Shown: positions 14,652-32,794, numbered from the stretch's first letter. The stretch is DNA of 64,000 bases from an uncultured Gammaproteobacteria bacterium (GCA_963773585.1 CAVZBR010000001.1:366298-430297); one strand, 5' to 3'. A program made the numbers and translations. Notes: a model not told the origin generated them from the sequence alone.

Positions 14652-14827
14652 ATTTGCGTGTTTTGGCATTGCGCCGCCAAGCGCACGGCTTACCCGTCAG
14701 GCGCTGAATCGGTACAACAGCCACCGAACGGACGGTGAGAGCGGCCGAGGATGCGGCGCGCAACGGGCTCGCCGCGCAGTGGCCGCCTCGAAAAGCGACG
14801 CGCCGTGCGGGCCGATGACGTAATTCT

Positions 14828-15214
14828 CTAGGCGCCGGAGCAAAAGTTCAGATATTGTTGGGCGTCCATGAGTCCAGCGAAATCGGCGGCGTCGTCCGGT
14901 TGTATTCGAAGCAGCCAACCCGCCTTATACGGGTCGCCATTGATAAGTTCAGGCCTATTCAGAAGTTCAGTATTGGTCGCGACTATCATGCCGCCCAACG
15001 GTAAAACCAATTCACTTACCACTTTGGCGGATTCGATAAGGCCGAACGTTTGACTCTTGGCGACAGTGTCACCGGGATCGGGAATTTCGACAAACAGAAT
15101 GTCACCGAGACTCTCCTGGGCAAAATTCGTGATGGCGATCAGATAGGTGCCTTCCTTGTCTTTTCGACACCCCAGGTGAGATTGGTTGCACAGGTAGCCA
15201 CCAGGGCATTGCAT
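14828..15214 (-). CDS. GcvH-family lipoyl-carrier protein (orphan, no gcvT/gcvP nearby)
   Basis: ..YLIAITNFAQESLGDILFVEIPDPGDTV..LIESAKVVSELVLPLGG..PELINGDPYKAGWL.. matches the GcvH fold, including the lipoyl-lysine in the ESAK motif. Start at MQCPGGY. Confidence 0.7.
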   Translation of the reverse strand: MQCPGGYLCNQSHLGCRKDKEGTYLIAITNFAQESLGDILFVEIPDPGDTVAKSQTFGLIESAKVVSELVLPLGGMIVATNTELLNRPELINGDPYKAGWLLRIQPDDAADFAGLMDAQQYLNFCSGA

Positions 15215-15356
15215 TGAATAGATCCTCACTTCGATAAAGGCGAATGGAGCAATTTCGCCGCCAATACGTATGGCCACGGAAATCCGATATGGGCGACGGG
15301 ACTAAACGGTGGGGCGGCGGCCTGGAATAATGACCAGGCCGCCGCGTTCACGTTGA

Positions 15357-16589
15357 TCAAAACGTCCAGCTCAGACCGGCGCCGAATTGCCAAGCGCTGG
15401 CTTCGACTTTTGTGCCGCCGATCTGTTCGCTTTCTTCCAAGGCGGTGGCAGCGTGAATGTCGATGCGAAAGTTGTTATTCACAGCATACCCAAGGCCTGC
15501 CGTGACTTGGTGCTTCCAGATAACCTCTGCATTGGTGGCTTGCAGATAGCGTACCAATGTCGGGTTGAGTTGCACGGTAGAGCCGCCAGCAACGAGGGAA
15601 GTGGCCTCACCGACACTTGAGCCGACGTTGCCTTTGATGGGGCTGTCGGCGTAGCTATAGCCTAACCGCCATTTGAATTTCCCTTGGGTGAGTTGCGCGC
15701 CCAGGCCAAAGACCGTCTGATTGTCATATATGTCCTGGTAGAAGTCGGCCTGTCCCCAGTTCTTCCAGGTGACATCGCCTTCGATCAGCAGATTGCCGCC
15801 CATTAGGGATGAGTTCGCGATGCCCAGCGCGAGTTCTTGCGGCTGCTCGACGGTAAGGTCATAGAAACCCGTGGCGGAATATTTGGTCGCGTTGTCGTAT
15901 TTGATGGAAAGCGGGCTGCGGTAATAGGCGCCAAAGGTGGTTGGACCAAGTTCATAGGTCGTGCCGAGGGTGGCACGTATCCCGTATCCGTGCACGGAGG
16001 AGCCGTTTTCCAGCAGACCGAGCTGTAGGTAACCGCTTCCGAGAGTCACCATGCCGCCCACATTCCAGTGGTCGTTGAGTTTGTACGCGAGCCCTGCGTT
16101 GGCGCCGAAGAGGATCAGCTCCGCCGTTGGACTCAGGCTTCCCGGTACCGACCGGAAATCGGATCCGATACCCGATACGGGTGTCAAGCCGACGCCGAGC
16201 GTCAGGCCATTGCCGAGAGGTTGGATAATGCTGACGTTCGGCAGCAGGTAATCACTCGCGTCGGAGTCGGCGGACCACGCCGTACCGGTTGCACTTCCAT
16301 CGTGGGTATCGGTGACCGCTGGGTGATAAAACGTGGCGCCGAACAGGAAATGCGTGCCGTAGTCATACTGACTCAGGGTGGCGGGGTTGCCGAATACTGC
16401 AGCGGAAGTGTCCTGCGGCCGTGCGATACCGACACCACCCATTCCGCCGGCGGCAGGCATCATGGTGAGGTTCAGGTCGGTCCCGTAGTTGGCCGCCTGG
16501 GCGCTCCCGGCTAATAGCGTCATCAAAGTTGCGTACAACACGCGCACTTTTGACCGTCCTGTGATGTGATGACTCAATGGATTGTTCAT
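15357..16589 (-). CDS. FadL/TodX/XylN-family outer-membrane hydrophobic-compound channel
   Basis: 410 aa. Signal peptide ending ..AGSAQA. Gly/Ser/Thr/Tyr-rich beta-barrel composition. C-terminal ..GLSWTF aromatic terminus typical of the FadL family. Confidence 0.75.
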   Translation of the reverse strand: MNNPLSHHITGRSKVRVLYATLMTLLAGSAQAANYGTDLNLTMMPAAGGMGGVGIARPQDTSAAVFGNPATLSQYDYGTHFLFGATFYHPAVTDTHDGSATGTAWSADSDASDYLLPNVSIIQPLGNGLTLGVGLTPVSGIGSDFRSVPGSLSPTAELILFGANAGLAYKLNDHWNVGGMVTLGSGYLQLGLLENGSSVHGYGIRATLGTTYELGPTTFGAYYRSPLSIKYDNATKYSATGFYDLTVEQPQELALGIANSSLMGGNLLIEGDVTWKNWGQADFYQDIYDNQTVFGLGAQLTQGKFKWRLGYSYADSPIKGNVGSSVGEATSLVAGGSTVQLNPTLVRYLQATNAEVIWKHQVTAGLGYAVNNNFRIDIHAATALEESEQIGGTKVEASAWQFGAGLSWTF

Positions 16590-16675
16590 CTCTTATCCTA
16601 TCTTGTTGCGGGGCCGAAAAGAGTGGCTCCCTGATCGTCCAGGTGGCGGCAAAAACCACCAGCCGACTGCGAGTG

Positions 16676-17230
16676 TCAGAGTTTTTCGCCGTTGAGCGTG
16701 ACGTTTCCGGTGACGGTCACTGCGCGGCAGATGGTATCCAGCACCGGACAGTGCGATTCGACGGTCTCAGCGAGTTTGCGAATGGTTTCGGCATCTGCCG
16801 GGCTGTCGATGAAAGTCTCATAACGAACGTTGTCGTATCCGGCAGGAATATTTTCGTCCATAGCGAACAAACCACGCAGGTCCAGATATCCTTTGACAGC
16901 GACTTTTACGCTGGTGAGCTCGACTCCCATTACTGACGCGTAAGCGGAGTACATGATCTCCTGGCACGTGCCGAGGGCGGCAAGAACGAGCTCGACCGGG
17001 TTCATACCGGCGTCTTCGCCGCCCAGCTCCGGCGGCTCGTCGATTGTCAGGAGCGGGAATTCGCGCACTTTCGCCGTGCAACGCACCCCGCTTTGGAGTT
17101 CGGTTTCCGAGCGGAATACCAGCTTGGCCGCCTGGGGGTTGGCCTGGATTCGTCCCATTGTCTTGGTCAGGGCGGCTTTGACACGATCGTTCGCGGAAGT
17201 TTGTGTTGTGCTCTCTGGCGTAGCGCTCAT
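16676..17230 (-). CDS. OsmC/Ohr-family peroxiredoxin-like protein
   Basis: 184 aa with ..GGEDAGMNPVELVLAALGTCQ.. and ..HCPV.. motifs of OsmC. Confidence 0.75.
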   Translation of the reverse strand: MSATPESTTQTSANDRVKAALTKTMGRIQANPQAAKLVFRSETELQSGVRCTAKVREFPLLTIDEPPELGGEDAGMNPVELVLAALGTCQEIMYSAYASVMGVELTSVKVAVKGYLDLRGLFAMDENIPAGYDNVRYETFIDSPADAETIRKLAETVESHCPVLDTICRAVTVTGNVTLNGEKL

Positions 17231-18004
17231 TGGTGACTCCTCGACTCGGGCAAGTATTGGATTGATTTCCCCGTTCGGCCTTCAGTGCCGGGCTTGGGTA
17301 TGCAGACAAGAGCAGGCTGCATGCCAGGCTGTGCAGCAGGGACGTTCGAGTTGCGTTGGCCGCAGTGTGTTCTGTTCAGGCTGAACCGTAACGGGATGAT
17401 TGTCCGCTGTTTTTTCAGTCGAATAAGCGATTTTAACAAGCCAATATTCGGACAGGGCGCAGTTTTTCGATTCAAGAAGCGCGCCCGTAGATGTCACGTG
17501 GATAGCTCACGATGTGACAACGCAGTTGCAGGAGATGAACACTGGAGGGGGTAACCGGCGAAATCGTTTCTATGTCGAGCGATTACAACGTACCGCAGGT
17601 CAGAATAGGCGTTGATCGCCGACGTCGATATCCACGCGGAGCACCATGTGCGGGCACCTGGAAGCGACGGATCTTTCAAATCGTTGAGATGGGATGTATT
17701 CGAAACAGGCGCAATATTCCGGCGTTGGTACGGTTTGGTCCGCGGCGCACGTGCCTGCCGCGATACCGAAGAGCCTAAGACGGAGCGCTGTACTGTGATA
17801 TTCGATCTGCGGTAGGGATTGTTGCGGTTATCTATGGACCGGCGATCGGTATCGCAGTGCATGATGTGCGCCGGCTCATTCGTAGCCCTCGATGCGCCGC
17901 TTTGTCCCCGTCTCCTCACGCGATCGAGCGACCTTCAATGGGTTCGGTGCGGATACCAGCACCGGTGCGATTCCCAGTTAAGATGGGAGGCCGGAAGCAG
18001 ATCT

Positions 18005-18535: not shown

Positions 18536-18760
18536 GGGGTCCCGACGCTGGCCGGCGCATTTGCGCAACGCATATCCTTTCTCGTCTTCGTAGCCGATGC
18601 GCGCCGATTGCCACGTTCTGCTACCGTGGACATAGGTAGTTTTACGTATGTACCGCCGCGCGACGTGTGTGTCATACGCATAGGCCAGCTATAGTTAAAA
18701 ATATCAGGGCCATGCCGCGCCCCGGGGCATGGAGTAAAACGCGTCCTGCGCGGCGGCACC

Positions 18761-19975
18761 ATGGGGGGCTATCAGATGAATGGTTCGGAGCGAGAAGCGC
18801 GCTTATCCGATCAATTACCTCGAGACCTGGACAGCATTTTGCGACGCACGCACCAGGTGGCCACCGAGATAGTTGCGCCAGACAGCGAACAGGTCGACCG
18901 TGAAGCCCGTTGGCCCCGAGAAGGTTTGCAGGCGTTGCAGGCGGCCGGTCTGGCAGGGTTGGTGATACCCGAATCAGCGGGCGGTCTCGGCCAAGGCCTG
19001 TACGCACTCGCACAAGTCTGTGAAATCCTCGGGCAGGAATGCGCCTCGACCGCTATGTGTTTCGGCATGCACTGCGTCGGCGCGGCGGTTCTGGCGGCCA
19101 AAGCAACGCCGGATCAGCAACGTCGCTACCTTGAGCCCATTGTCCAGGGACGTCATTTAACCACGCTGTCGCTGAGCGAACCGGGAACCGGCACCCATTT
19201 TTATCTTCCCCAGACCGAACTCCGTTCGCTCGGACCCGATCGCTATCAAGTCACAGGTACCAAGGCCTTCGTGACCAATGGTGGATGTGCCGATTCCTAT
19301 GTCGTCTCGGCGGTGGCGGCCGACGCCGGAGCGCCGCCAGGACAGTTCTCCTGTGTGGTGGTGCCGCAGGATGCCCCCGGTCTGAAATGGGGGGCGCCTT
19401 GGGACGGTATGGGTTTGCGCGGCAATTCCTCGCGGAGTCTGGAGCTGCAGGCGGTAGCGGTACCTCACCAGGACTTGCTGGGCGAAGAGGGCGATCAAAT
19501 CTGGTATGTATTCAATGTCATTACACCTTATTTTCTAACTGCGATGGCCGGCAGCTATCTGGGTGTGGCCAGCGCTGCCATTAACCAGGCGCGTGAGTGG
19601 ATGGTCCGTCGGCACTACACCAACAGCGGCTCATCACTGGCGCAACTCCCGGTGCTGCAGCATCAACTTGGTACGCTTTGGGGCGTTTTGGAAAGGACGC
19701 GGCGTCTGGTCTACTATGCCGCGCGCAGTTTTGATGCCGACGAGCCCGATGGTCTGGCCAGCCTGTTCACCGCAAAAGCGGAAATGGCTGATTGCGTCGT
19801 GCACGTGGTCAACGAAGCCATGACGCTTACTGGCGGCAGCGCGTACCGCAACAATTCTTTATTACACCGATTGATGCGCGATGCGCGCGCGGCCCATGTA
19901 ATGTCGCCGACCACCGATCTGCTGCGCATTTGGACCGGCCGCGCATTACTCGGCCAGCCTATTCTGGGTGACTGA
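18761..19975 (+). CDS. acyl-CoA dehydrogenase-family flavoprotein
   Basis: 404 aa with the ACAD N-terminal alpha-domain, middle beta-domain (..LSEPGTGTHF..) and C-terminal alpha-domain. Stop TGA at 19973-75 lies 2 nt before the kinase start. Confidence 0.8.
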   Translation: MGGYQMNGSEREARLSDQLPRDLDSILRRTHQVATEIVAPDSEQVDREARWPREGLQALQAAGLAGLVIPESAGGLGQGLYALAQVCEILGQECASTAMCFGMHCVGAAVLAAKATPDQQRRYLEPIVQGRHLTTLSLSEPGTGTHFYLPQTELRSLGPDRYQVTGTKAFVTNGGCADSYVVSAVAADAGAPPGQFSCVVVPQDAPGLKWGAPWDGMGLRGNSSRSLELQAVAVPHQDLLGEEGDQIWYVFNVITPYFLTAMAGSYLGVASAAINQAREWMVRRHYTNSGSSLAQLPVLQHQLGTLWGVLERTRRLVYYAARSFDADEPDGLASLFTAKAEMADCVVHVVNEAMTLTGGSAYRNNSLLHRLMRDARAAHVMSPTTDLLRIWTGRALLGQPILGD

Positions 19976-19977
19976 GA

Positions 19978-22275
19978 ATGGGCGGGCACGTCACCCTGGT
20001 GCGTGTGGACAACACCGTCTCTGACGTATTGTTGCGTGAACTCGAACAGGAGTTGAGTTTTCAAGGTGCGCTGCGCGAGGACGAGATGTTGTCGGTCCTA
20101 GCCCGCAATACACTCGATACCGACGCCATTGTGCTTGGCACGCGGCTCGAAAGGCCGGTGCAGTTCGCGCAGCAGATCTATTCGCTGGGCAAGGATTTGC
20201 CGATACTGATTCTAAGCCCGCAAGAGCGATTCGAGCAGTTGCGCAAGGCGGTGCAGTTCTCGCCTTTTCTGGGTAGTGAGACCCGGCCGTGGCCGGCTTC
20301 CGATGTTGAGGAATTGGCGCTCGAGTTACGCGAGTGCGTGACCCGTACGCAGCAACGGCGTCGCTACCGGGGAGCCATGGCTGCCGTGCAGGCGCGGCTG
20401 AATGGCGCGCCGCCAACGCGCCCCCAGGTCAGCCATTATCTGGACAGCTTGTTGGATCGCGCTCCGATCGGCGTGCTCAACCTGGATCCGCACGGCCGAA
20501 TCCTGACGCTCAACCGGCGTGCAGCGGCGATTCTGCAGCGCACCGGGCAGGCTATCGCTGGCACCAACTTTCTCAATTTATTCAATTCACCGGAACGAGA
20601 ACGCATCGATACGATGCTACGTCAATGCGTTCCGCCGTCCCGCGAACGGGCGCCGATGGTAGTGGAGATTCCGGGCGTCGAAAGAACTTATGCCGACATG
20701 ACCGCAGCCGCATTGGTTGACCCCACGGGTGAGTTGGTTACGACGGTAATTCTGCAGGACGTCACCGAGCACGTACGCGCCGAAGGCGAGCGCAAACGCG
20801 CCGAGCAGGATCTGTTGGCCAGCGAGCGTCGCTACCGCGAACTGCTGCTCACCATGAACGAGGCCGTGGCTGTGCTCGACGAGCGCTACGTTATAACCTA
20901 TGTCAACCGTCGCTTTTGTGACATATTCGGCTACCGGCAAGACGAGATCCTGGGACGAGCGCTTATCGAGTTCGTGCACGAAGACGACCGCGATCTGGTC
21001 AGCTCTCACATGGGCACCGTCCGGTGGGGTCAGCCGGTACGTTTTGAAAACGCATGGATTACGAAGTCGGGCGCTACGATCCATACGCTCACCTCACCCA
21101 AGCTGATCTTCGACGAGAAAGGCAACCATCGCGCTTGCCTGGGCGTATTCACCGACATTACCGAGCGTCGCCAGGCAGAGGAGGCCGTTCGCCAGAGCGA
21201 GAAGCAACTGCGATTGATTACAGAGGCCATTCCCGAGCTGGTCGGTTACCTGGACACGGACGGCCGCTATCGGTTCTGCAATAAGGCCTTTGAAACGTGG
21301 TTCGGCTGCAGCCGCACGGAGATACAGGACCTGAAGGTCGAGGACGTCATTGGCGCCGAAGCCTATCGTACGATCAAGCCCTATCTCGATGAGGGATTCG
21401 GGGGCGAAACCGCGCACTTCGAGGGTACGATCCCTTATGCCCGGGGTGGTCCCCGCTATTGTCGCGCCAGCTACATACCCGATCACGGTCCGGACGGCCG
21501 TGTACGCGGGCTGTTCCTACTGGTCGCCGATATCAGCCAGCACAAAGAAGCAGAAGAGCGCCAGCGTCAGCGTTTAATTGATCTATGCCATGCTTCACGC
21601 CTGACCACCCTGGGCGAGCTGAGCTCCCAGCTAGCACACGAACTTGCCCAGCCGCTGGCATCCATCGCTACTCATGCCCACGCTTGCGCGCGGCTCATGG
21701 ACCGGGGCGGCGATTTGACAAATATTCGCGACTCGTTGATCGACATAACCGACCAGGCACTTCGCGCCCGCGAAATCATGTCCCGTCTGCGTAAGCTCGC
21801 TCGCAAGGACTTCAGCCGTGGCAGATTGGACTTCAACGCACTGATCGATTCGGTACTGCACCTTACCGAGTCTCAAGCGCGAATGCAGAACGTTCACGTG
21901 GAGGTCGACCTGGGGCCCGATCTGCCGCCGCTGTTAGGTGATCAGATCCTGATCGAGCAGGCGCTGTTGAACCTGGTGCTCAATGCGATCGATGCGCTCG
22001 GTGGCGTATCGAGCGTGCAGCGCAGTCTCTCTGTCAGGACTTGCGAGCAGCCGGAAGGGGCGGTCCGCGTCGAAGTCTGCGACAACGGGCCGGGGCTCGA
22101 CAAGGAGCTGGAGCACCGGATCTTTGAACCTTTCTTCAGCACCAAAAGCGAAGGTATGGGTATGGGCCTTGCTATCACGAAATCGATTGTCGACAACCAT
22201 GGCGGCCGTATCGGTGCCGAGAACCTCAAGCCAGCGGGAACCCGCTTTTGGTTTTCTCTGCCGGCGGCCGACTGA
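19978..22275 (+). CDS. multi-PAS sensor histidine kinase with N-terminal pseudo-receiver-like domain
   Basis: 765 aa. Three PAS/PAC-like segments. HisKA H-box ..LSSQLAHELAQPL... HATPase N/G boxes ..LNLVLNAIDAL.., DNGPGL, GMGMGL. Confidence 0.85.
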   Translation: MGGHVTLVRVDNTVSDVLLRELEQELSFQGALREDEMLSVLARNTLDTDAIVLGTRLERPVQFAQQIYSLGKDLPILILSPQERFEQLRKAVQFSPFLGSETRPWPASDVEELALELRECVTRTQQRRRYRGAMAAVQARLNGAPPTRPQVSHYLDSLLDRAPIGVLNLDPHGRILTLNRRAAAILQRTGQAIAGTNFLNLFNSPERERIDTMLRQCVPPSRERAPMVVEIPGVERTYADMTAAALVDPTGELVTTVILQDVTEHVRAEGERKRAEQDLLASERRYRELLLTMNEAVAVLDERYVITYVNRRFCDIFGYRQDEILGRALIEFVHEDDRDLVSSHMGTVRWGQPVRFENAWITKSGATIHTLTSPKLIFDEKGNHRACLGVFTDITERRQAEEAVRQSEKQLRLITEAIPELVGYLDTDGRYRFCNKAFETWFGCSRTEIQDLKVEDVIGAEAYRTIKPYLDEGFGGETAHFEGTIPYARGGPRYCRASYIPDHGPDGRVRGLFLLVADISQHKEAEERQRQRLIDLCHASRLTTLGELSSQLAHELAQPLASIATHAHACARLMDRGGDLTNIRDSLIDITDQALRAREIMSRLRKLARKDFSRGRLDFNALIDSVLHLTESQARMQNVHVEVDLGPDLPPLLGDQILIEQALLNLVLNAIDALGGVSSVQRSLSVRTCEQPEGAVRVEVCDNGPGLDKELEHRIFEPFFSTKSEGMGMGLAITKSIVDNHGGRIGAENLKPAGTRFWFSLPAAD

Positions 22276-22284
22276 GGAGGCGCG

Positions 22285-22941
22285 GTGATGATGGACGGTC
22301 CGGTTTATATTGTGGACGACGAGGAGACCATGCGTCGTGCACTGAGCGTATTGCTGTGTTCGGCGGACATTCGCTGCCGCGACTTCGATTCTGCCAAGGC
22401 ATTTCTAGAGGCGCTGGACGAATTGGAACCCGGCTGCTTACTGCTCGATCTCTATATGGCTGGAATGACAGGTCTTGAACTGCAGGAAAAGCTTATAGAG
22501 CGCCAGTTCTCTATGCCAATTATCGTCATTACCGGTCACGGGGAGGTGGAAACTGCCGTACGAGCAATGAAACGCGGTGCGGTAGACTTCGTCCAAAAGC
22601 CATTCGATCCGGCTGAGTTGTTGGACCGGCTGCACCATAGCATGGTGGCATTTCACGCTCAGCGGGATGTGAACGAGGCGGCCGACAGAGCACTCGAGCG
22701 GGTCGCGATTTTGACGCCAAGAGAGCGCGAGATTGCCAATCAGTTTCTCGCGGGGAAACGTAACAAACAAGTCGCGCATGCCCTGTCCATTAGCGTTCGG
22801 ACGGTGGAGTTGCATAGAGCCAGCATTATTCGAAAACTGGATGCTAAAAGCATTGCGGACGCCGTGCACACCATTACCTTGGCCGAGAGCGCGGCCGGCG
22901 ATGCGGTCAACGGGAAAAGTACGCCACCTGGGAAGCGCTGA
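22285..22941 (+). CDS. FixJ/LuxR-family response regulator
   Basis: GGAGG RBS. REC domain (IVDDEE..D..MAGMTGLEL..) plus C-terminal LuxR-type HTH (..LTPREREIANQFLAGKRNKQVAHALSISVRTVELHR..). Confidence 0.85.
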   Translation: MMMDGPVYIVDDEETMRRALSVLLCSADIRCRDFDSAKAFLEALDELEPGCLLLDLYMAGMTGLELQEKLIERQFSMPIIVITGHGEVETAVRAMKRGAVDFVQKPFDPAELLDRLHHSMVAFHAQRDVNEAADRALERVAILTPREREIANQFLAGKRNKQVAHALSISVRTVELHRASIIRKLDAKSIADAVHTITLAESAAGDAVNGKSTPPGKR

Positions 22942-23460
22942 ACATGCATTTGGCACGTACGTAGAACTACGTGGTCGCCCGATGCCCCAGCGCATCACGG
23001 GACTGACATACCGGATTCACTGCTCCGTCATGCTCCGAATCCTCCTGCTTTAGCTCGCTAGCCCCTGGTTGCCGTGGACCCCTGACTTTACCGAAGCACG
23101 CATATTTGCGTATTTACCTACCCACTAGCCAGGTCTAAGTTTATTCGTTACTCGTGGCTCGCAACGCGCCTGACCTTTGCGTAACCGCGTTGCATATATC
23201 CAACGCCGTTGAGAAGTCGCGTGTTGGTCGCGCCAATCTGCGGGGGACTAAGACGCGTCTTCATGGGGAAACGCCAGATGGTTTGTAAGAGGTCTTGCGT
23301 TATCTCCGTTTGCGCGGCCCAGTGACCGACGGCTATCCGAGAAATCCAAGGCGACCGGGCACTTGGAAGACGACGGGATTGATCACGTCGTCCACCATGG
23401 AAACTTATCGTGCTCACGATGGGCGCACTGACCAGTAATGACATGGGGGATCGTGCGTTG

Positions 23461-25413
23461 ATGCATCAGCTGACAGTATCGGAACACGCTCGCTTGGTTT
23501 ATTCCGCGCTGGAAAAGCCCGATGCGATCACGAATGATGTTTCTCCTGAGGTGGCCCGCTCCTGGCGTCGATGCCTAATCGACTATCAGCTTGACCCTGT
23601 TCGCCGAGCAGAGCCAGCGGTAGTCGAAAGGACCGATTTACGGCAGCGCCAGGAGCAGCTGGCGCCCTTGCTTGAATTCGCCAAATCCGAGATGACCAGC
23701 CTCTATCAACAGGTCGCTGGATCCGGATACGCCATTCTGCTCACCGACATGGACGGGGTGATCTTGAACTACGTCGGAGATCCACAGTTCACCGACGCGG
23801 CGATGCGCAGCGGGCTGCACAACGGCTCGGTCTGGAGTGAGGCCGCTCAAGGCACCAACGGCATGGGGACTTGCATCGCCATGAAGAAGCCGCTGGTCGT
23901 ACATCAGCACGAGCACTTCCTCAGCCGCCACACCGGGTTGACATGTTCCGCGGCACCGATCCGGGACCCCAGTGGAGAAATGATGGCGGTGCTCGACGCC
24001 TCATCTGAATCGCGCCTGGCACAGCAACACACCATGGTATTGGTCAACATGGCGGCGCAAACGATTGAGAATCGCATGTTCTTGGCTGCCTTCCGGGAAC
24101 ATTTCTTGATCCGATTCCATTCGCGCCCGGAGTTTGTCAGTACACTGGGCGAAGGCGCTATCGCCCTCGACGAAATCGGCATCATCTGTGGCGCGAACCG
24201 CAGCGCGCTGTTTCAGCTCGGTATACGCTTGGACAACCTGATCGGCTGCCCGGTCGAGAAGGTATTCGACGGCTCAATGAACACCCTGATCAAGAGTGCT
24301 CGCAAGCATGCCTACCATCCGATGGCGATCCGCAGCGCTTGTGATGGGCGACGTTTTTACGGGGCTGTACAACCACCTATCGACATTCCTTGTAAGACGG
24401 GTTTAAGACGTTTGTGGCGAAACCCGATCCGTACGGACCGCGAGCCATATGGCGAATGCAGGCTCCAGCGTCTGGATCTTGGTGATCCTGCTATGGCGCG
24501 CAACGTCGATTGCGCGCGCAAACTGCTGAACCGCAATATACCGTTGCTGTTATATGGCGAGACCGGCACCGGAAAGGGGATATTCGCTAAGGCACTTCAC
24601 GATGAAAGCGAACGTTCCTCAAAGCCATTTGTGGCAGTAAACTGCGCCGCGATTCCAGAGGCGCTGATCGAGAGCGAATTGTTCGGATATCGGCCAGGTG
24701 CATTCACTGGCGCAAACCGAAACGGCAGCCGGGGGAAAATTTTGCAGGCGGATGGCGGTACGTTGTTTTTGGATGAGATTGGGGATATGTCTTTGCATCT
24801 GCAAGCTCGATTATTGCGTGTTCTGGAGGAAAAGGAGGTAGTTCCGCTCGGTGGAGAGTCACCCGAAAAAGTGAACTTGGCCGTAATTAGCGCCACACAT
24901 CGTGAGCTTACCACGTTGATTTCGGACGGCCGGTTTCGAGAAGACCTTTATTATCGCTTGCACGGCATGGCGCTGACGATGCCTCCGTTGCGAGAGCGGC
25001 AGGACCGAAGAGCACTAATGCATGCGATTGCGCAAAATGAAGCCGGTAACGAGGAAATAGAACTAAGCGAAGAGGCCCTGGATATCCTGGAAAGTCAGGC
25101 TTGGCCGGGAAACATCCGGCAATTGTGCAATACGCTGCGTACGGTCTTGGCTTTTTGCGATGGCGACGTGATCAAAGCGGATGATCTCCCGGATGACCTG
25201 TGTCATGGTCCATCCGGACGCAATGCCGCCGAGAATTCAACTGCGTCCCAAGGGCAATTACTCGATCCGCTCGCCGCGGCTGAGTGCCGCGCGCTGCTCA
25301 GAGAGCTCAACAAAACGCGTTGGAATGTGGCGCAGCTGGCTCGAAACCTCAATATCAGCCGCAATACGCTATATAGAAAAATGCGGCGTCATGGCATTTG
25401 TCCGCCGCGATGA
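23461..25413 (+). CDS. sigma-54-dependent transcriptional activator, AcoR-type (GAF sensor + AAA+ sigma-54 interaction + Fis-type HTH), copy A
   Basis: ORF 23410..25413. GAF-like N-domain. GAFTGA, Walker A GETGTGKG and ESELFGY motifs. C-terminal HTH ..ISRNTLYRKMRRHGI... Start probably MHQL at 23461. Confidence 0.85.
   Translation: MHQLTVSEHARLVYSALEKPDAITNDVSPEVARSWRRCLIDYQLDPVRRAEPAVVERTDLRQRQEQLAPLLEFAKSEMTSLYQQVAGSGYAILLTDMDGVILNYVGDPQFTDAAMRSGLHNGSVWSEAAQGTNGMGTCIAMKKPLVVHQHEHFLSRHTGLTCSAAPIRDPSGEMMAVLDASSESRLAQQHTMVLVNMAAQTIENRMFLAAFREHFLIRFHSRPEFVSTLGEGAIALDEIGIICGANRSALFQLGIRLDNLIGCPVEKVFDGSMNTLIKSARKHAYHPMAIRSACDGRRFYGAVQPPIDIPCKTGLRRLWRNPIRTDREPYGECRLQRLDLGDPAMARNVDCARKLLNRNIPLLLYGETGTGKGIFAKALHDESERSSKPFVAVNCAAIPEALIESELFGYRPGAFTGANRNGSRGKILQADGGTLFLDEIGDMSLHLQARLLRVLEEKEVVPLGGESPEKVNLAVISATHRELTTLISDGRFREDLYYRLHGMALTMPPLRERQDRRALMHAIAQNEAGNEEIELSEEALDILESQAWPGNIRQLCNTLRTVLAFCDGDVIKADDLPDDLCHGPSGRNAAENSTASQGQLLDPLAAAECRALLRELNKTRWNVAQLARNLNISRNTLYRKMRRHGICPPR
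23515..24310. repeat. about 0.8-kb segment near-identical (inverted) to 28607..29415
   Basis: The reverse complement of 29341-29415 and of ORFs 28747..29028 and 29001..29294 is identical or near-identical at the DNA and protein level to 23515-23590 and ORFs 23904..24185 and 23638..23931. Encoded residues 20-290 of the two activators differ at only about 4 positions. Confidence 0.8.
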
Positions 25414-25804
25414 GTACTGAGGGCATCTCGTTATCGATGAGCGTGGGCTGGAAATCGACAGATCTGGCGCGCCAGCACATCTAACTGTGTTCGATAGTGG
25501 GACGGGCGCCATTTTTGGCGACCGGAAATTCGGCTGCCGCAATGGCCCGGAAATCCTTCCCGTCCGCCGGGCAGTTCCACCCAGGTGGGCGTTCCCGCGG
25601 GCAAGAAAACGCCACGGACGCACGCCCGGTCACGTTACCTGCCGGTTTTCCCGGCCGACCGGCCGGAGGCGTCTTTGCAAAGGCCATCCAGAAAACAGAG
25701 TGACACTTTGTCCGCAATGCCCCAGGTTTGGCGCACCGGCAAAACCCTAGGGCGAGCCAAGGGCTGACGGGTCGTGCATTCACGCCCAGCAGTGCAATGG
25801 CACA

Positions 25805-25819
25805 CTAGTTGCTCATCTG
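25805..25819 (+). promoter_or_regulatory. sigma-54 (-24/-12) promoter
   Basis: TGGCAC-ACTAG-TTGCT is a near-perfect match to the TGGCACG-N4-TTGCW consensus. Oriented toward the ATP-grasp gene about 440 nt downstream. Confidence 0.6.
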
Positions 25820-26254
25820 AAGCCACGGATGTCTGCGGCCGTGCAAGCAGGCGCGGAGGGCGGTCCAAAGGTGAAGGTGCTCGCCAGGATCTCTTGCCAC
25901 TCAGCGGAGCTGTGCAGGCCGCTACGTAGGTGTTGATCTCATGCCGGGCGAGCCGCCGACAGGGTGGTTGGCCCTGGCGTGGAGAACGCGAAGTTGACTG
26001 GATGGAACCGCAACATCTAAAAATGGCCACGAATCTGAGTTGGGAATTGATTGTGCCGTGGAATCCGTCCGTTCATAACGGATCCGGTGGTGCAAGGCAG
26101 CGTCTTTGCCGCTTTTTTGCAGTTGCTGCGGAAGATAGGGCGTCGAAGCAGGTATCTGAACACATTTTCGAGTTCCGTCCATGGTGTCGCTAGGCGGCGG
26201 GTGCCGGTTGTTGCGTCGTACAAGCTTGACGGGAAACGACCTGGAGGTGCGTTC

Positions 26255-27268
26255 GTGCGAATCTTGGTGTTCGAGTATGAGACTGGCGGTGGGTTGCTCG
26301 GTAAACCATTGCATCCGGCTTTGGTTCAAGAGGGCGAACTCATGCTACACGCGCTGCTGCGCGACCTCGTTGAACTGCAAGAGATCGAAATCCTGAGCTT
26401 GCGCGACGGCCGACTTCCGCGTCTGGCGTTTCCGGCCAAGGTGCGCCAGTTGTATCACAGCCGCGAATTGGGGGCCCAGTTCAAGCGTGGTCTGGCGGAA
26501 TGTGACGCCGTGTGGCCGGTGGCACCGGACAGCAACGGAACCCTTGAACGGCTGTCCATCGAGACGTTGGAACACCATCGGGTGCTGATTGGCAGCCGTC
26601 CCGATGCGATTGCCGTCGCGGCGAGCGTACTGCGTACCGCTCGAACGCTGGAGCGGCACGGGATACCGGTAGTGCCCGCCGTAAGTGGTGCCGACGTACT
26701 TGCCGGGGCGGCACTCCAAGATCCGCCATGGCTCGTCAAGCCCGACGCCGGGACCAGTTACACGGGCGCGCGCCTTGTGCGCGGTGAACGGGAACTACTC
26801 GAGTTCCTGCAACAATCCCGTAACGCTGAAGAGTTGGTGGTGCAGCCCTACGTGGTCGGTACCCATGCCAGTTTGTCGGTACTGGCGGGAAATGGGATGT
26901 GCCAACTGCTCGCTTGCAACGCGCAGCGTATGGTTGTGGTGAATGATGAATTTCGGCTCGCCCGTTGCGTGGTGAACGGCATACAGTCCGATCGTCTGCA
27001 GTTCGAGGAACTAGCGCGCGCCGTTTCTTCCGTACTGCCCGGCTTGTGGGGCTACTTCGGAATCGACCTCATGCTGACGGAGGCTGGTCCCCGGATATTG
27101 GGCGTAAGTGCGCGCCTGAATACCTGCTACGCAGGAATCACACACGCGTTGGATCTCAATGTCGCCGGAGTGGTGCTTGGATTGTTGAAGGACAATGCGC
27201 AGGCGCCACACATCACGCAGTCCGCCCAGACGGTTGCGCTGGACATGGAGGCTGTGGATTTCGCGTGA
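26255..27268 (+). CDS. ATP-grasp domain protein (ATP-grasp_3/MfnD-like predicted carboligase)
   Basis: GTG 26255 follows a GGAGGTG RBS. N-terminal MRILVFEYETGGGL.. motif typical of this ATP-grasp subfamily. About 338 aa. The upstream part of ORF 26051.. lacks coding character. Confidence 0.55.
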   Translation: MRILVFEYETGGGLLGKPLHPALVQEGELMLHALLRDLVELQEIEILSLRDGRLPRLAFPAKVRQLYHSRELGAQFKRGLAECDAVWPVAPDSNGTLERLSIETLEHHRVLIGSRPDAIAVAASVLRTARTLERHGIPVVPAVSGADVLAGAALQDPPWLVKPDAGTSYTGARLVRGERELLEFLQQSRNAEELVVQPYVVGTHASLSVLAGNGMCQLLACNAQRMVVVNDEFRLARCVVNGIQSDRLQFEELARAVSSVLPGLWGYFGIDLMLTEAGPRILGVSARLNTCYAGITHALDLNVAGVVLGLLKDNAQAPHITQSAQTVALDMEAVDFA

Positions 27269-27506
27269 CACCGGCGGGTGGTCGGCTGGCGTGCGCCAGC
27301 ATGCCTCATGCGGTGAGCAGCGCTCTGGGAAGGATGCCAAGTGGATGCGCGGTCAACGTCGTGGCGATGACCGGAGAACTCGTGCGTCCGCTCGCCAGTC
27401 GAATGCGCGCCCATTCTGAATGCGGGTGAGTCTCAATCTTCGAACGTGCCGCTTCGTTGAGGCGACCACGCATTTCCGAGGCTCAGCGCTACGGTTGCAA
27501 GGACAT

Positions 27507-29471
27507 TCACCGTGGTGGTTGGATGTCGTAGCGCTTCATCTTGCGGTAGAGCGTATTACGGCTTAGGTTGAGTGCGCGCGCGACCTTCGCCACGTTCCAG
27601 CGCATCGTCTCAAGTTCATGCAGGAGCGCCGCGCGCTCGGCTTTTGCAAGCGGATCGCATGTGTGGGGCAGGGACGCGCCTTCCCCCGCCGCTGGCAACG
27701 TGGCAATTCTGCCCCTGCGGAACTCGTCGGGCAGGTCATCAACCTCGATGATCGTACGTTCGGACAGGGCCACTAGGGTGCGCAGCGTGTTGCAAAGTTG
27801 GCGTATGTTCCCCGGCCACTCGTATTGGCAAAGTAGATCGAGCGCTTCGTCACTTAGCTGGACATTTGGGCCATCGCGTGTTTCTTGTCGAACGATTTCG
27901 TGTATCAGTGTCCGACAGTCGCGGCGTTCGCGCAAAGGGGGAATGGTGATCGCGACACCGTGCAACCGGTAATAAAGATCGTCTCTAAAGTGGCCCTCGG
28001 CACTCAGCTGGGTAAGATTTTGGTGCGTGGCACTGATTACCGCGATGTCCACCTTTTCAGGAGTCTCCCCGCCAAGCGGAACCACCTCCTTTTCTTCCAG
28101 GACACGCAGCAAGCGCGCCTGCAGATGCAGGGGCATGTCGCCAATCTCGTCCAGGAACAAAGTGCCGCCATCAGCTTGTAGTATCTTTCCACGGCTGCCG
28201 CGCCGGTTTGCGCCAGTGAAGGCGCCGGGACGGTAGCCGAAGAGTTCGCTTTCAATCAGCGTCTCGGGGATTGAGGCGCAATTGACCGCGACGAAAGGTT
28301 TCGTGGCGCGCTCGCCGGCATCGTGAAAGGCTTTAGCGAAAACCCCTTTTCCGGTTCCGGTCTCACCGTACAGCAGCAACGGAATATTGCGATTCAACAG
28401 CTTGTGCGCGCGATGAATATTGCGCGCCATGGTCGGGTCTCCGAGATCAAGACGACTCAGGCGGCTGTGATCTGGAGCCGTACTACCGTCGGAGTTCGGC
28501 GTCGGGCGCGGCCTAATGGAAACGATTTTTCGAGTAACCTCCTCGGCGTGGGCGGGTAGTTGCACTACGGCGAAGAATCGTCTGCCATCAACGGCTCCGT
28601 GCAACGGCATAGGATGAAAACAATGCTTGCGAGCACTCTTGATCAGGGTGTTCATTGAGCCGTCGAATACCTTCTCGACCGGGCAGCCGATCAGGTTGTC
28701 CAAGCGTATACCGAGCTGAAACAGCGCGCTGCGGTTCGCGCCACAGATGATGCCGGTTTCGTCGAGGGCGATAGCGCCTTCGCCCAGTGTACTGACAAAC
28801 TCCGGGCGCGAATGGAATCGGATCAAGAAATGTTCCCGGAAGGCAGCCAAGAACATGCGATTCTCAATCGTTTGCGCCGCCATGTTGACCAATACTATGG
28901 TGTGTTGCTGTGCCAGGCGCGATTCGGATGAGGCGTCGAGCACCGCCATCATTTCTCCACTGGGGCCCCGGATCGGTGCCGCGGAACATGTCAACCCGGT
29001 GTGGCGGCTGAGGAAGTGCTCGTGCTGATGTACGACCAGCGGCTTCTTCATGGCGATGCAAGTCCCCATGCCGTTGGTGCCTTGAGCGGCCTCACTCCAG
29101 ACCGAGCCGTTGTGCAGCCCGCTGCGCATCGCCGCGTCGGTGAACTGTGGATCTCCGACGTAGTTCAAGATCACCCCGTCCATGTCGGTGAGCAGAATGG
29201 CGTATCCGGATCCAGCGACCTGTTGATAGAGGCTGGTCATCTCGGATTTGGCGAATTCAAGCAAGGGCGCCAGCTGCTCCTGGCGCTGCCGTAAATCGGT
29301 CCTTTCGACTACCGCTGGCTCTGCTCGGCGAACAGGGTCAAGCTGATAGTCGATTAGGCATCGACGCCAGGAGCGGGCCACCTCAGGAGAAACATCATTC
29401 GTGATCGCATCGGGCTTTTCCACGACCGACTGAACCAGTCGGGCATGTTCGGACGCTGTCGAATCGCGCAT
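27507..29471 (-). CDS. sigma-54-dependent transcriptional activator, AcoR-type, copy B
   Basis: 654 aa with the same architecture as copy A. The N-terminal roughly 290 aa are near-identical to copy A. The AAA+/HTH part is about 80-85% identical at the protein level, with many synonymous differences. Confidence 0.85.
   Translation of the reverse strand: MRDSTASEHARLVQSVVEKPDAITNDVSPEVARSWRRCLIDYQLDPVRRAEPAVVERTDLRQRQEQLAPLLEFAKSEMTSLYQQVAGSGYAILLTDMDGVILNYVGDPQFTDAAMRSGLHNGSVWSEAAQGTNGMGTCIAMKKPLVVHQHEHFLSRHTGLTCSAAPIRGPSGEMMAVLDASSESRLAQQHTIVLVNMAAQTIENRMFLAAFREHFLIRFHSRPEFVSTLGEGAIALDETGIICGANRSALFQLGIRLDNLIGCPVEKVFDGSMNTLIKSARKHCFHPMPLHGAVDGRRFFAVVQLPAHAEEVTRKIVSIRPRPTPNSDGSTAPDHSRLSRLDLGDPTMARNIHRAHKLLNRNIPLLLYGETGTGKGVFAKAFHDAGERATKPFVAVNCASIPETLIESELFGYRPGAFTGANRRGSRGKILQADGGTLFLDEIGDMPLHLQARLLRVLEEKEVVPLGGETPEKVDIAVISATHQNLTQLSAEGHFRDDLYYRLHGVAITIPPLRERRDCRTLIHEIVRQETRDGPNVQLSDEALDLLCQYEWPGNIRQLCNTLRTLVALSERTIIEVDDLPDEFRRGRIATLPAAGEGASLPHTCDPLAKAERAALLHELETMRWNVAKVARALNLSRNTLYRKMKRYDIQPPR
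28607..29415. repeat. inverted copy of 23515..24310
   Basis: See the partner repeat. Identity ends abruptly at ..cgcaagcat (24308 / 28611). Confidence 0.8.
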
Positions 29472-29799
29472 CGAGAATTCCCCCCTTCCGAGAGTGGAAC
29501 CGGCATTCTAGTTCTATAGCCACATGACCATACGTTCGGTGCGATGTCAAGCACCGCTGGTGACCTGATCGGCGGGAAATTTTCTCCGGAGATGTCCTCT
29601 GCCTTCAGTGAAAACTACGGAACGATGCCGGGAAAACGCTTCCAAGTACGTATCTTAAAGGCCAGTCTTGTACGCTCTGCCAGGCGCCCTTGTCTCCGCA
29701 GCTTGTCCCACGTGTTCTTGCGCTTTCAGCGGCGTTTGATTGACGCTGCTGTCCTTCACCGTTTTTTGCTGCAATGGGAGCGAGGCTCTGATATAAAAT

Positions 29800-29817
29800 C
29801 TAGAATACGGCTTCTAG
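29800..29817. promoter_or_regulatory. palindromic operator-like site CTAGAA-N6-TTCTAG upstream of the tetR-family gene
   Basis: Perfect 6-bp inverted repeat 14 nt upstream of ATG 29832. Adjacent tataaaat -10-like hexamer at 29792-29799. Confidence 0.45.
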
Positions 29818-29831
29818 TAGGATGAACGCAC

Positions 29832-30422
29832 ATGGGCATGGCGAGCGCAAAACAACGCAGGCCGAACACGCAGGATTTGATCCTGAATGCGGCTTTGCAT
29901 CTATTCACAGAGAGGGGTTACTTCAACACTTCGGTGCAGGATGTCGCGCGGGTCTCGGGCGCGAGCATCGGTTCCATTTATCACCACTTCAAAGACAAAG
30001 AAGATATCGCCCGCGCGCTGTATCAACATCACCTGGACTTCATGTCGGAAGCGATCGAAACGATCATCATTCGTCATGGCAGCGTGCAGGAGCGTTGTCG
30101 TGCAATTATGGCGATGTTATTCGAATTTACCGAGCGGCAACCGGCAGCGATGGCATTCATGCTCTATGCAAAGCACCGGGAGTTCCTGCCGGGCGCCCGG
30201 CCCGTGTGCTCATCGCGACCGTTCGAGCTCATGCGCAAGATCGTGGCCATGGGTATTGAAACCGGTGAGATTCGGGCGTTAGATCCGGTGATCGCTTCAT
30301 CTGCGATGTTCGGGGGTGCGCTGCGCCTCATCGCCGCGCGACTGGACGATGTTATCGATTGGCCGCTCGACGAACGCATCGACGAGGTGTGGTCATGCGC
30401 ATGGCGAGGAATAGAAGCCTGA
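29832..30422 (+). CDS. TetR/AcrR-family transcriptional regulator
   Basis: N-terminal HTH ..LILNAALHLFTERGYFNTSVQDVARVSGASIGSIYHHFKDKEDI.. 196 aa. Confidence 0.85.
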   Translation: MGMASAKQRRPNTQDLILNAALHLFTERGYFNTSVQDVARVSGASIGSIYHHFKDKEDIARALYQHHLDFMSEAIETIIIRHGSVQERCRAIMAMLFEFTERQPAAMAFMLYAKHREFLPGARPVCSSRPFELMRKIVAMGIETGEIRALDPVIASSAMFGGALRLIAARLDDVIDWPLDERIDEVWSCAWRGIEA

Positions 30423-30460
30423 TCCGCGAAAATGGCGCTATTCGGCCTATCTCTCCCGAT

Positions 30461-30988
30461 TCAGTTGTTAACGATGATTTTCTTGAGTTCGCGCCTGAAG
30501 TCCGCATCGTCCCAATCGCGTCCGCCATTGATTCTGTGTGTAATCCGGCCATTTTCGTCGATCAGAAACGTAGTAGGTAACCCGAGGACCTTCCAGCGTT
30601 CAATGGCGTTTGAATCCTGATCGAGCAATACGGGGAACTTGATGTCGAAGTTCTCCAGAAACGGGGCTACGGTGTCCCAGTTTTCCCCGACGTTGACGGC
30701 GAGGATCTCGAGTCCATCATTGTGCAACGCGTGGTAGGTATGCTGCATGGACGGTAGTTCTTTTCTGCACGGCGGGCACCATGTTGCCCAGAAATTGACT
30801 GCTACGACCTTGCCTTTGTAGTCGGATAAACGTTGCTGCTTGCCATCCAGGTCCTGCAGTACGAGCTCGGGTGCGTCGACGTTCGGTACGGCGGGTTGAA
30901 TCGTCTGCGGTGCACTGATCGACTTTGTCAGCGGCAGAGCGGCAAGTACTGCGGCGAGGCCGAGTACCGTCAAGCGTCGTCCAAGCAT
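30461..30988 (-). CDS. TlpA/ResA-like periplasmic thioredoxin-family protein
   Basis: Signal peptide. WATWCPPC motif. 175 aa. Confidence 0.8.
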   Translation of the reverse strand: MLGRRLTVLGLAAVLAALPLTKSISAPQTIQPAVPNVDAPELVLQDLDGKQQRLSDYKGKVVAVNFWATWCPPCRKELPSMQHTYHALHNDGLEILAVNVGENWDTVAPFLENFDIKFPVLLDQDSNAIERWKVLGLPTTFLIDENGRITHRINGGRDWDDADFRRELKKIIVNN

Positions 30989-30998
30989 GGGATTCTCC

Positions 30999-31652
30999 TT
31001 ATTTTATGAGCGTTCGATCGCGCGCGCATTGCAGATTACGCGCCATTGCCGTGTGCTGTTTACCGCCCTCGCGCCAGTGAATCACCAGATCGAATTTTGA
31101 CGTTGGCGGCACTTCGGCGGCGATCATGCCCTGGAACCAGTCTCCAGGAGCGTGATGCTGTACCGTGGGAAACTGCGACCATCGAAACGCGATGCGCGCG
31201 GTTTTCGAGACGCCGGAGGTTTTCCAACGGTCCAGCCATTGCTCGGTGAGCGTCAGCGGCCGTGTCGTACCATTTGCGCGGACTTTCCAGTCTTTCAGAT
31301 CGATCGAAAGCTCATGGTCTTGGCTACCATTTTTGACAATAGTCTGAAAGACGCAGGCAGTTGCGTAGCGGTCAGCCGTTTCTGCAGAGAAACCGCGGGC
31401 TAGATAAAAGGATCGGGTCTGGTCCGGGACCCGTTGAATGAACTCAAAGGTGACCCCGCTGGGGGCTTCGAGTGTCCAGTGATAGCTGCCGACGGCATCT
31501 TGCTGTTGGCTGCGGGTTTGCACCATGGGCGTATTGGCGTGCACCTCCGATATGACAAACATCTGAAATGCACACCATAGCGCCACCAGGGTCTTCACGG
31601 GCACACGAAATCGCTCGGCATGCCGGACGTTTCGTGACTGAAGCATAAACAT
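30999..31652 (-). CDS. secreted hypothetical protein
   Basis: 217 aa with an N-terminal hydrophobic signal-like segment. No recognisable family. Co-oriented and tightly spaced with its flanking genes. Confidence 0.45.
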   Translation of the reverse strand: MFMLQSRNVRHAERFRVPVKTLVALWCAFQMFVISEVHANTPMVQTRSQQQDAVGSYHWTLEAPSGVTFEFIQRVPDQTRSFYLARGFSAETADRYATACVFQTIVKNGSQDHELSIDLKDWKVRANGTTRPLTLTEQWLDRWKTSGVSKTARIAFRWSQFPTVQHHAPGDWFQGMIAAEVPPTSKFDLVIHWREGGKQHTAMARNLQCARDRTLIK

Positions 31653-31686
31653 GCGCGACGTTCCGTTTGTTTCTTGGCTTTCGATT

Positions 31687-32199
31687 CTAGCGTACCGGGA
31701 TCAGCGCATAGCCACGGTTTTGGTAACCCATGAGCGATATCCAGCTGTTTCCAACAACCTTTACGCCAGGATGTATCGTGTCGGGTTGGACGTGCAACAT
31801 CTTGGCGGCGACTCCGCACTGTTCGAGCGTGACATTGTTCATCTTGGACAGCTTGTCCAACACTTGTCCTATCTGGACTGAGACTTGCTTCTGCTCCGGG
31901 TTCAGTGCACTTCGATCCGTTGATATATACGGGGTCGCGGGGCCCCGGAATGCCAGCACGAATACCGGTTTGACGCCTTGCGACTGCACCGATTCCGCGG
32001 TTTCGGCTATCAAGTTGAGGTAAAACTTGAGTTTCTGCGGGTTTCCTGTGGTGATGTCAAAAACGGCGTGCGTTTCCGTCAGGCGGGTAAGTGCAGCGTG
32101 ATCATCTGCGGGAGCGTTCGCTGCCGATATGGTATGTACGAAACTTAAGCACGCCAACGCTACCACCGTATGGACGTATCGGATGGGCGATCGAAACAT
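31687..32199 (-). CDS. DsrE/DsrF/YchN-like (COG1416) periplasmic protein
   Basis: Signal peptide ..LACLSFVHTISA. C-terminal ..LEQCGVAAKMLHV..GVKVVGNSWISLMGYQNRGYALIPV resembles the COG1416 DsrE-like C-terminus. Confidence 0.5.
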   Translation of the reverse strand: MFRSPIRYVHTVVALACLSFVHTISAANAPADDHAALTRLTETHAVFDITTGNPQKLKFYLNLIAETAESVQSQGVKPVFVLAFRGPATPYISTDRSALNPEQKQVSVQIGQVLDKLSKMNNVTLEQCGVAAKMLHVQPDTIHPGVKVVGNSWISLMGYQNRGYALIPVR

Positions 32200-32794
32200 G
32201 GTGGCACCTCCAGAGGCTTATATTATTTTTGTGTACTAAAGGTCGAGCAATATCCGTGCCTGACGGGCGCGTTGGGGCTCGAGTGCCACGGGTAAGGCCG
32301 ATCGCCGGGCGCGTGCTGGAATTGCCGTTTTGGGTGTGCGTGTCAGCGGTCGCTAGGCGTTGCACGCATGTGTCGTTGTGTCCTATGAATGGCACATATC
32401 TCGCGTGACGCCGCGCCCGCAACAGTGGTGTCGGATGCTACTTGGACGGTTGCGCTATACGTCAGACGCGAAGCTGTAAGAGCGCTGGAACCGGCGCCAG
32501 CGCTATGGGTTCATCGATCGCGCAGCAAACGATTCGCACGAATGGTACCGGATGGCGAAAGAAGGGCCTTCCGGCACCAGGCCTGTCCCTATGCGACTCC
32601 TTGGGTGCAGGCATGGTCTGATTCGCAGCCCTCATCAGGCTGTATTTTCCCGGTCGTGTTCCACCGGCAGACTCTCTCGTTCCCACTCTGGATACCCATC
32701 GTGGAGGCGAGTGGCCTGACGGCCGTGGGCGCAAAGTGCGGCGACCGCATAATACTGGCTTCAGACTCTTCATCCCGGGCATCGGAGTAGAATT

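Follow-up and report, generated by a model that had tools for sequence, protein, structure and literature searches.

In a 64,000-nucleotide stretch of DNA from an uncultured Gammaproteobacteria bacterium (GCA_963773585.1 CAVZBR010000001.1:366298-430297; the whole stretch is called the window below, and all positions are counted from its first letter), two long, convergent open reading frames (ORFs) on opposite strands encode sigma-54 enhancer-binding proteins, A (664 aa; 23419-25413, + strand, start ATG 23419) and B (654 aa; 27507-29471, - strand). The DNA encoding most of their sensors is almost identical and forms an inverted repeat with arms of 799 bp, referred to as the core, and the remaining halves of the two genes are saturated with synonymous changes. 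With a probability that we put at roughly 0.85, the core undergoes concerted evolution by gene conversion, as judged from a comparison of both genes with their counterparts on a contig of a related genome, L081.

The core was delimited by column-by-column alignment at 23511-24309 (+ strand; codons 32-297 of A) and 28623-29421 (- strand; codons 18-283 of B), with 4 mismatches in 799 bp. A repeat search returned inverted arms of 906 nt with 95% identity at 23472-24377 and 28555-29460; BLASTN of the window against itself returned 839 bp at 98.1% identity, followed by a separate 497-bp match in the AAA+ region at 75.9%; and the A core, used as a BLASTN query against the window, was matched at 99.5% over 799 bp, with two copies in total. 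Assuming the 24% divergence of the adjoining AAA+ region, a stretch of 799 bp would have at most 4 mismatches with a probability of approximately 1e-87. The identity starts at EKPDAIT in both genes (residue 18 of B, 32 of A) and stops after one and the same codon (..ARKH|; residue 283 of B, 297 of A), with a drop within 1-2 bp to approximately 50% in the linker and 76% in the AAA+ region. Beyond the core, A and B share uninterrupted stretches of 17 bp at most. The linker, AAA+ and helix-turn-helix (HTH) part specific to A (24310-25413, + strand) is anciently diverged from that of B, its synonymous divergence (dS) being saturated. At the protein level, the cores of A and B differ at 3 amino acids in the window and at none in L081.

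Three of the four arm differences are specific to B and lie within 71 bp (23966, 24006 and 24036 in the coordinates of A), and the changes in the B arm include two amino-acid replacements, D169G and M192I (B numbering). This cluster could be the result of one multi-base mutational event or of a short imported patch.

The locus had been singled out by a sequence-only reading as a convergent pair of GAF/sigma-54 activators with near-identical inverted sensor DNA, and the alignments agree with it on this central point: the similarity in the self-BLASTN lies at the DNA level, not at the protein level alone, and the identity breaks off at the same codon (..RKH) in both genes, as had been described. 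The remark that the distal half of A is richer in A/T-ending codons was also correct, the GC content at third codon positions (GC3) being 0.56 in the distal half of A, 0.64 in the distal half of B, and 0.72 in the core. Several of the figures had to be revised. The segment between the arms, given as 3.3 kb, measures 4,313 bp (24310-28622); the B arm, placed at 28607-29415, lies some bases further along, at the position given above; and the AAA+ and HTH domains, thought to be about 80-85% identical, share approximately 76% of their DNA in the AAA+ region and 60% in the C-terminal part, the output halves being 70% identical as proteins. The equation of the repeat with the sensor module stands in part, since each arm covers most of the sensor, namely most of the MimR_N helices, the GAF domain and about three quarters of the PAS-like sub-domain in an AlphaFold2 model of B, but its edges miss the domain bounds of the model.

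The counterparts of A and B in L081 were found by protein search on a 199-kb contig, which encodes P0001 (93% to B) and the A-type protein P0003. The gene order is that of the window (TlpA-like, TetR, B, ATP-grasp, A, LuxR-type response regulator, PAS histidine kinase, acyl-CoA-dehydrogenase-fold), and a block of approximately 14 kb, from the acyl-CoA-dehydrogenase-fold gene to a gene for a 170-aa protein, is collinear at 86-88% identity (18630-32750 in the window, 6737-20894 in L081). In a four-way alignment of A and B from both genomes, the two L081 copies are likewise near-identical over exactly the same stretch, with 2 differences as compared with 4 in the window. Variable sites were called genome-specific when both copies within one genome agree and the two genomes differ. 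By this definition, 51 of the 57 variable sites in the core were genome-specific, none was paralog-specific and 6 were singletons, whereas the AAA+ and HTH domains had 1 genome-specific site, 207 paralog-specific sites and 93 singletons (Fisher's exact P = 1e-53). The 51 genome-specific sites range from 23523 to 24303, so that the whole core is covered.

These counts (51:0 in the core, 1:207 in the output domains) bear out the earlier proposal of gene conversion or domain swapping as opposed to simple whole-gene duplication, and comparison of dN/dS by domain and of the orthologous locus leads to the same result. In the core, dS was 0.005 between A and B of one genome and 0.27 between orthologs of the two genomes (omega 0.07); in the AAA+ region it was 0.22-0.35 between orthologs and saturated between A and B. 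Neighbour-joining (NJ) trees were discordant in the same way: a clade of A plus B received 100% bootstrap support with the core and 0% with the output domains, and in the output-domain tree B joined the single-copy proteins P0002, P0004, P0005 and P0006 at 56%. The substitutions that followed the split of the two genomes are common to both arms in each lineage, and the arms were therefore homogenised after the split, in both lineages, which speaks for concerted evolution and not for one isolated event.

Among 89 loci fetched, such a repeat was found in L081 only. The closest relative among GTDB representative genomes was merely 49% identical, and a scan of JGI metagenome DNA with a degenerate pattern of the core gave 0 matches. 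GC-biased gene conversion was considered as an account of the base composition and dropped, because the apparently single-copy P0004 has a similar GC3 excess (0.74 vs 0.65).

The following course of events would account for this pattern. A and B would be old paralogs or xenologs of an enhancer-binding protein like AcoR, MimR and DhaR, and their output halves (linker, AAA+ and HTH) would have diverged until synonymous sites were saturated. Recurrent intrachromosomal homologous recombination, in the form of non-reciprocal conversion during repair, would keep the 799-bp arms alike, and it would be stopped at the flanks, where identical stretches do not exceed 17 bp, so that the block would maintain itself. 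Identical runs as short as these should not sustain strand exchange in RecA-dependent recombination with mismatch-repair editing. The edges would be the same in both lineages because the flanking heterology limits the tracts. In the AlphaFold2 model of B, the left edge falls after the first N-terminal helix, and a tract limit set at the DNA level fits the modelled edges better than protein modularity does.

In terms of function, one sensory input may feed two outputs, with the same ligand or partner protein read by both A and B, and from the identity of the cores it may fairly be inferred that A and B sense the same signal. The signal could be a partner protein or else a small metabolite of the C1 or aldehyde type. 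The two proteins differ in the N-terminal tail, the linker, the ATPase and the DNA-binding domain, and the regions upstream of their genes are unrelated, A adjoining a two-component system and B a TetR gene.

Several points weigh against this account. Both conversion and shared ligand specificity are predicted from sequence. The pair is carried by two genomes only, and "recurrent" accordingly stands for at least one event per lineage plus identical edges; which copy, A or B, was the donor of the core was not distinguished by distances or NJ bootstraps. At its right edge the tract cuts through the predicted PAS-like fold, leaving the last two strands of this fold different in A and B, and hence it does not amount to a clean functional unit. 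Lastly, the HTH recognition helices of A and B are identical over SRNTLYRKM; A and B may for this reason bind common sites, which would weaken the notion of two outputs.

The alternative that survives best dispenses with a sustained concerted process and holds that the domain was recently replaced a single time in each lineage, or once in the ancestor and once later. Strictly, the data from two genomes call for no more than a single conversion over the full length of the core in each lineage since the split, and the low divergence within each genome (4 and 2 differences) fits one recent event each. One-off events would, however, need edges that match to within 1-2 bp on both sides and in both lineages, which is unlikely unless the block pre-existed, and we consider this explanation possible but improbable.

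The geometry of the repeat raises the question of inversion. The 4,313-bp segment between the arms holds both output halves, a sigma-54 promoter, a leader and the ATP-grasp gene, and crossing-over between the arms would flip it and swap the output halves between the two 5' ends while leaving all genes intact. Inversion isomers at this locus are plausible on these grounds. The second orientation was unseen, the window and L081 being arranged alike; with two genomes, free flipping would produce matching arrangements in half of all cases, and the orientation thus says little either way. Chimeric proteins, with the tail of A and the output half of B or the reverse, were absent, and each cluster at 90% identity consisted of the two expected members.

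Two proposals build on such a flip. In one, the sensor cassette would act both as homogeniser and as reversible switch, the population would contain two wirings, and the repeat would be preserved by selection for these wirings or for a strictly matched ligand specificity of the two outputs; we regard this combination as distinctly unlikely. In the other, the inversion is programmed or selected, and the arms exist in order to flip the 4.3-kb segment between differently regulated 5' ends. The flip would indeed disrupt neither of the two genes, nor the promoter, nor the ATP-grasp gene, and the unrelated upstream regions of A and B do carry different conserved palindromes. Against this, no site-specific recombinase was found among the genes at 17.8-32.2 kb, including the 14-kb block, which makes a dedicated switch unlikely; both genomes share one orientation; the 90%-identity clusters contain no chimeras; and coding arms of 0.8 kb suit general recombination and not the short repeats of Hin, Fim or shufflon switches. 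Taken with this evidence, a programmed switch is highly unlikely.

An artefact of assembly or polishing, in which differing sensor regions were collapsed to one consensus, is very improbable. The source of the window and L081 both look like metagenome-type assemblies, judging by contig names and an ERZ accession, and multi-mapping reads can homogenise repeats. Yet the pattern and its edges are repeated in two independent assemblies, in which contigs of 945 kb (window) and 199 kb (L081) run through both arms, and the arms are not identical in either of them (4 and 2 differences). In addition, both genes are intact, stay in frame through the junctions and are under purifying selection, and an artefact would not place the edges at the very points beyond which real homology is broken into runs of at most 17 bp. 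That extreme purifying selection keeps the nucleotide sequences alike in the absence of recombination, owing to an embedded RNA or an overlapping gene, is excluded: long antisense ORFs do overlap the core, though these are common in GC-rich DNA, but orthologous cores vary freely at synonymous sites (dS = 0.27, as in the remainder of the gene) with both copies changing together, and Rfam finds nothing in the core.

Concerted evolution of the core by gene conversion thus being preferred, the origin of the two copies can be considered from their surroundings. The TlpA-like/TetR/enhancer-binding protein neighbourhood of B is kept in the single-copy relatives L086, L088 and L089, and as the single-copy proteins P0002, P0006 and P0007 share this neighbourhood, B is, on gene order, the syntenic, resident copy of ancestral type and A the extra copy. 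In the searches made, only the window genome and L081 yielded an output half of type A. The output half of A, used as a query, retrieved nothing closer than B-type proteins (best match P0006, 68%) from a list that omitted the known A ortholog and was thus non-exhaustive. Outside the window, the 945-kb source contig encodes a third paralog, P0014, which is approximately 60% identical to A and B and lacks the homogenised core that these two have in common.

In the relatives that carry P0004, P0006 and P0007, the genes directly downstream of the regulator encode PTPS, a flavoprotein, a DUF6513/pterin-binding protein, DUF447, 4HFCP_synth (MfnB) and AA_kinase; on the short contig of P0002, the AA_kinase gene alone is visible downstream of the regulator. 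We take the set from PTPS to AA_kinase to be typical of tetrahydromethanopterin and methanofuran biosynthesis. The junctions between regulator and cofactor genes in apparently single-copy relatives lie at 2276-2375 (L083), 7468-7560 (L086) and 3663-3759 (L089), and in L083 and L086 the short spacer before the cofactor genes contains a sigma-54-like -24/-12 element. This context of the regulator clade points to an undescribed sigma-54 regulon for the synthesis of C1 cofactors.

The proteins of genes A and B are identical to the database entries P0122 and P0121, respectively. Gene A has alternative starts at GTG 23410 and ATG 23461, and it is with ATG 23461 that the start of B aligns. Both proteins match the Pfam families GAF (E = 2.9e-13 for A, 1.2e-12 for B), Sigma54_activat (6.7e-64 and 2.3e-63), AAA_lid_14, and HTH_8 (1.4e-10 and 3.1e-11), both keep the motifs GETGTGK (Walker A), GAFTGA and FLDEIGD (Walker B) unbroken, and purifying selection acts on both in the window and in L081. 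With these AAA+ motifs, a Fis-type HTH and -24/-12 promoters nearby, A and B classify as sigma-54 activators. PF26965 (MimR_N) is annotated on their orthologs and on every close homolog, and the N-terminal region is weakly similar to the N-terminal domain of DhaR (4LRX; E = 0.0015). The AlphaFold2 model of B (mean predicted local distance difference test score, 80.8) consists of N-terminal helices, a GAF domain at about 90-210, a PAS-like domain at about 213-304, a disordered linker at 312-333, and the AAA+ domain. The layout of MimR_N, GAF and PAS-like domains places A and B, by sequence and model, in the AcoR/MimR/DhaR-type subfamily. All NCBIfam equivalog scores stayed well under their cutoffs, among them those for DhaR (289 vs 551) and PrdR (316 vs 795), and A and B were therefore assigned to no characterised regulator (AcoR, DhaR, PrdR or others).

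Between the two regulator genes, a sigma-54 promoter of the -24/-12 type (TGGCACACTAGTTGCT; 25798-25813, + strand) precedes the leader and the ATP-grasp gene. It is identical in L081, where it is situated inside approximately 50 nt of perfect conservation. A second sigma-54 promoter (AGGCACGGATATTGCT; 32246-32261, - strand) is conserved in L081 as AGGCATGGATATTGCT, as shown by a consensus scan of both sequences. Of the two best-fitting sites in the window, both with 1 mismatch to the consensus, the promoter at 25798 is one. These two conserved promoters are the likely targets of A and B. Upstream of the first, a conserved non-coding block with GTGACACTTTGTCCGCAATG (25687-25745, + strand; 55-110 nt upstream of the -24 element) is a candidate enhancer (upstream activating sequence) and stands out as an island of conservation with L081 within a poorly conserved spacer. 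As for a shared enhancer motif, TGACAC-like elements occur near promoters here and in the relatives, but the hexamer was unenriched in the region (4 and 6 occurrences vs approximately 7 expected) and is a lead at most. A scan for sigma-70 promoters and terminators gave a number of sites not above that in shuffled sequence.

The leader (25814-26254, + strand) is approximately 440 nt long, ends at the GTG start codon of the ATP-grasp gene at 26255, and is non-coding: its substitutions relative to L081 fall at codon positions 7/12/12, with no third-position bias, as compared with 17/18/63 in the ATP-grasp gene. The last 200 nt are approximately 85-88% conserved in L081. A terminator-like hairpin followed by a T-run lies at 26092-26118 (fold z-score -2.2), and one of its stem pairs is altered on both sides in L081, from G.T to C-G. 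The hairpin could be an attenuator or belong to a sigma-54-dependent small RNA; Rfam, applied to 22-31 kb, gave two sub-threshold matches at chance level only. The ATP-grasp ligase gene (337 aa; 26255-27268, + strand; database entry P0124) has the Pfam families preATP-grasp_3 and ATP-grasp_3 and a weak similarity to MfnD (NCBIfam MfnD_Meth, 49.8 bits against a cutoff of 400), and it is the only cofactor-type gene between the two regulators in the window.

Downstream of the promoter at 32261, an operon on the - strand consists of genes for a 170-aa protein (31687-32199), a 217-aa protein (30999-31652) and a TlpA/ResA-like protein (30461-30988); the first two have no family match, and the third resembles TlpA/ResA thiol-disulfide oxidoreductases. 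Divergent from B is the TetR-family regulator gene (29832-30422, + strand; Pfam TetR_N), and a palindrome conserved in L081, CTAGAATACGGCTTCTAG, lies between this gene and B at 29800-29820. On the other side, an upstream operon assigned by Pfam (18761-22941, + strand) encodes the acyl-CoA-dehydrogenase-fold protein, the PAS histidine kinase and the LuxR-type response regulator; between it and A is another palindrome conserved in L081, ACGCATATTTGCGT, at 23098-23111. The two palindromes are candidate operators that would give A and B different expression inputs. The flanks of the 14-kb block differ between the genomes: in L081, the dehydrogenase-fold gene is adjoined by a gene of the SBP56 (methanethiol-oxidase) family, the opposite side having genes for rhodanese and radical-SAM proteins, and in the window the flanking genes are glgC/suf genes and one of TlpA-like type.

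Elsewhere in the window, the region 5873-17326 contains genes for a fatty-acid-desaturase-like membrane di-iron protein, a 2Fe-2S/FAD/NAD reductase, three GST-like proteins, a PpoB2 copper chaperone, a DUF1326 protein, a FadL/TodX protein and OsmC, together with sigma-54-like elements at 13986 (+ strand) and 17326 (- strand). Judging from its gene content, the region may be an island for oxidation or detoxification under sigma-54 control, and the elements at 13986 and 17326 are possibly further targets of A and B. A very long ORF of 1,912 aa (43964-49702, - strand) is located where the GC content is raised (63-65%).

The A/B locus is a clean natural case of part-gene conversion, with identical input modules and fully diverged output modules. 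It offers a natural test of how sensors and outputs are combined in enhancer-binding proteins and of what limits conversion tracts, heterology or selection. Trees or ortholog calls based on the whole length of such regulators would mislead. If the segment between the arms inverts, the locus would also present a simple way of re-wiring regulation through general recombination, and the link of the regulator clade to tetrahydromethanopterin and methanofuran genes points the way to a so far unstudied sigma-54 regulon.

Among known systems, the tufA and tufB genes of Salmonella are inversely oriented and undergo RecA-type gene conversion, often with inversion (PMC5485169). As at the A/B locus, the tufA/tufB copies of Salmonella and E. 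coli are inverted on one chromosome and near-identical, synonymous sites included (PMC5485169, PMC6735719); general recombination is at work, and can be expected to invert the intervening segment as a side effect. The tuf genes differ from A and B in being highly expressed housekeeping genes that are far apart and homogenised over their whole length, whereas here 799 bp of approximately 2 kb are homogenised and the rest is saturated, the arms are 4.3 kb apart, and the genes encode regulators. The prokaryotic survey of Wang and Chen (2018) reports concerted evolution to be rare, with only 26 genes, mostly encoding subunits of stable complexes, and applies the same criterion as used here, namely that paralogs within a species are closer than orthologs, at synonymous sites too, with recurrent conversion as the cause (PMC6053082). 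In the main text of the survey, neither a signal-sensing transcription factor nor a part-gene tract is described, glnB (P-II) being the one regulatory protein noted (PMC6053082); compared with the cases described there, the time depth of the A/B core is shallow (ortholog dS approximately 0.27).

With respect to the protein family, A and B share with AcoR/MimR/DhaR-type regulators the MimR_N and GAF(-PAS) domains, the AAA+ sigma-54 domain and the Fis-type HTH, but their context suggests C1-cofactor, thiol-redox or organosulfur metabolism and not that of acetoin, acetone or dihydroxyacetone. A parallel among regulators is the pair RedR1/RedR2 of Aromatoleum anaerobium, paralogous sigma-54 enhancer-binding proteins encoded in one cluster and considered by the authors to respond to the same ultimate signal (PMC10084136). 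Like A and B, they have essentially identical GAF-PAS N-terminal domains and different N-terminal tails; unlike A and B, with output halves at 70%, they are near-identical throughout, with nine differences in the C-terminal domain. RedR1 and RedR2 preferentially form hetero-oligomers, and the paper describing them contains no analysis of concerted evolution (PMC10084136). In the 'flip/flop' region of yeast chromosome XIV, as at the A/B locus, inverted paralogs that are recurrently homogenised bracket a segment, there with two orientations; it differs in being eukaryotic, in its size of 24 kb, and in that the inversion polymorphism has been observed (PMC9731477). In a literature search, itself incomplete, no published case came up in which conversion affects just the sensors of two enhancer-binding proteins that are saturated elsewhere. 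Inverted paralogs under concerted evolution are already on record for bacteria, and the A/B locus is a clear but ordinary case of this kind, distinguished from tufA/tufB by affecting part of the gene.

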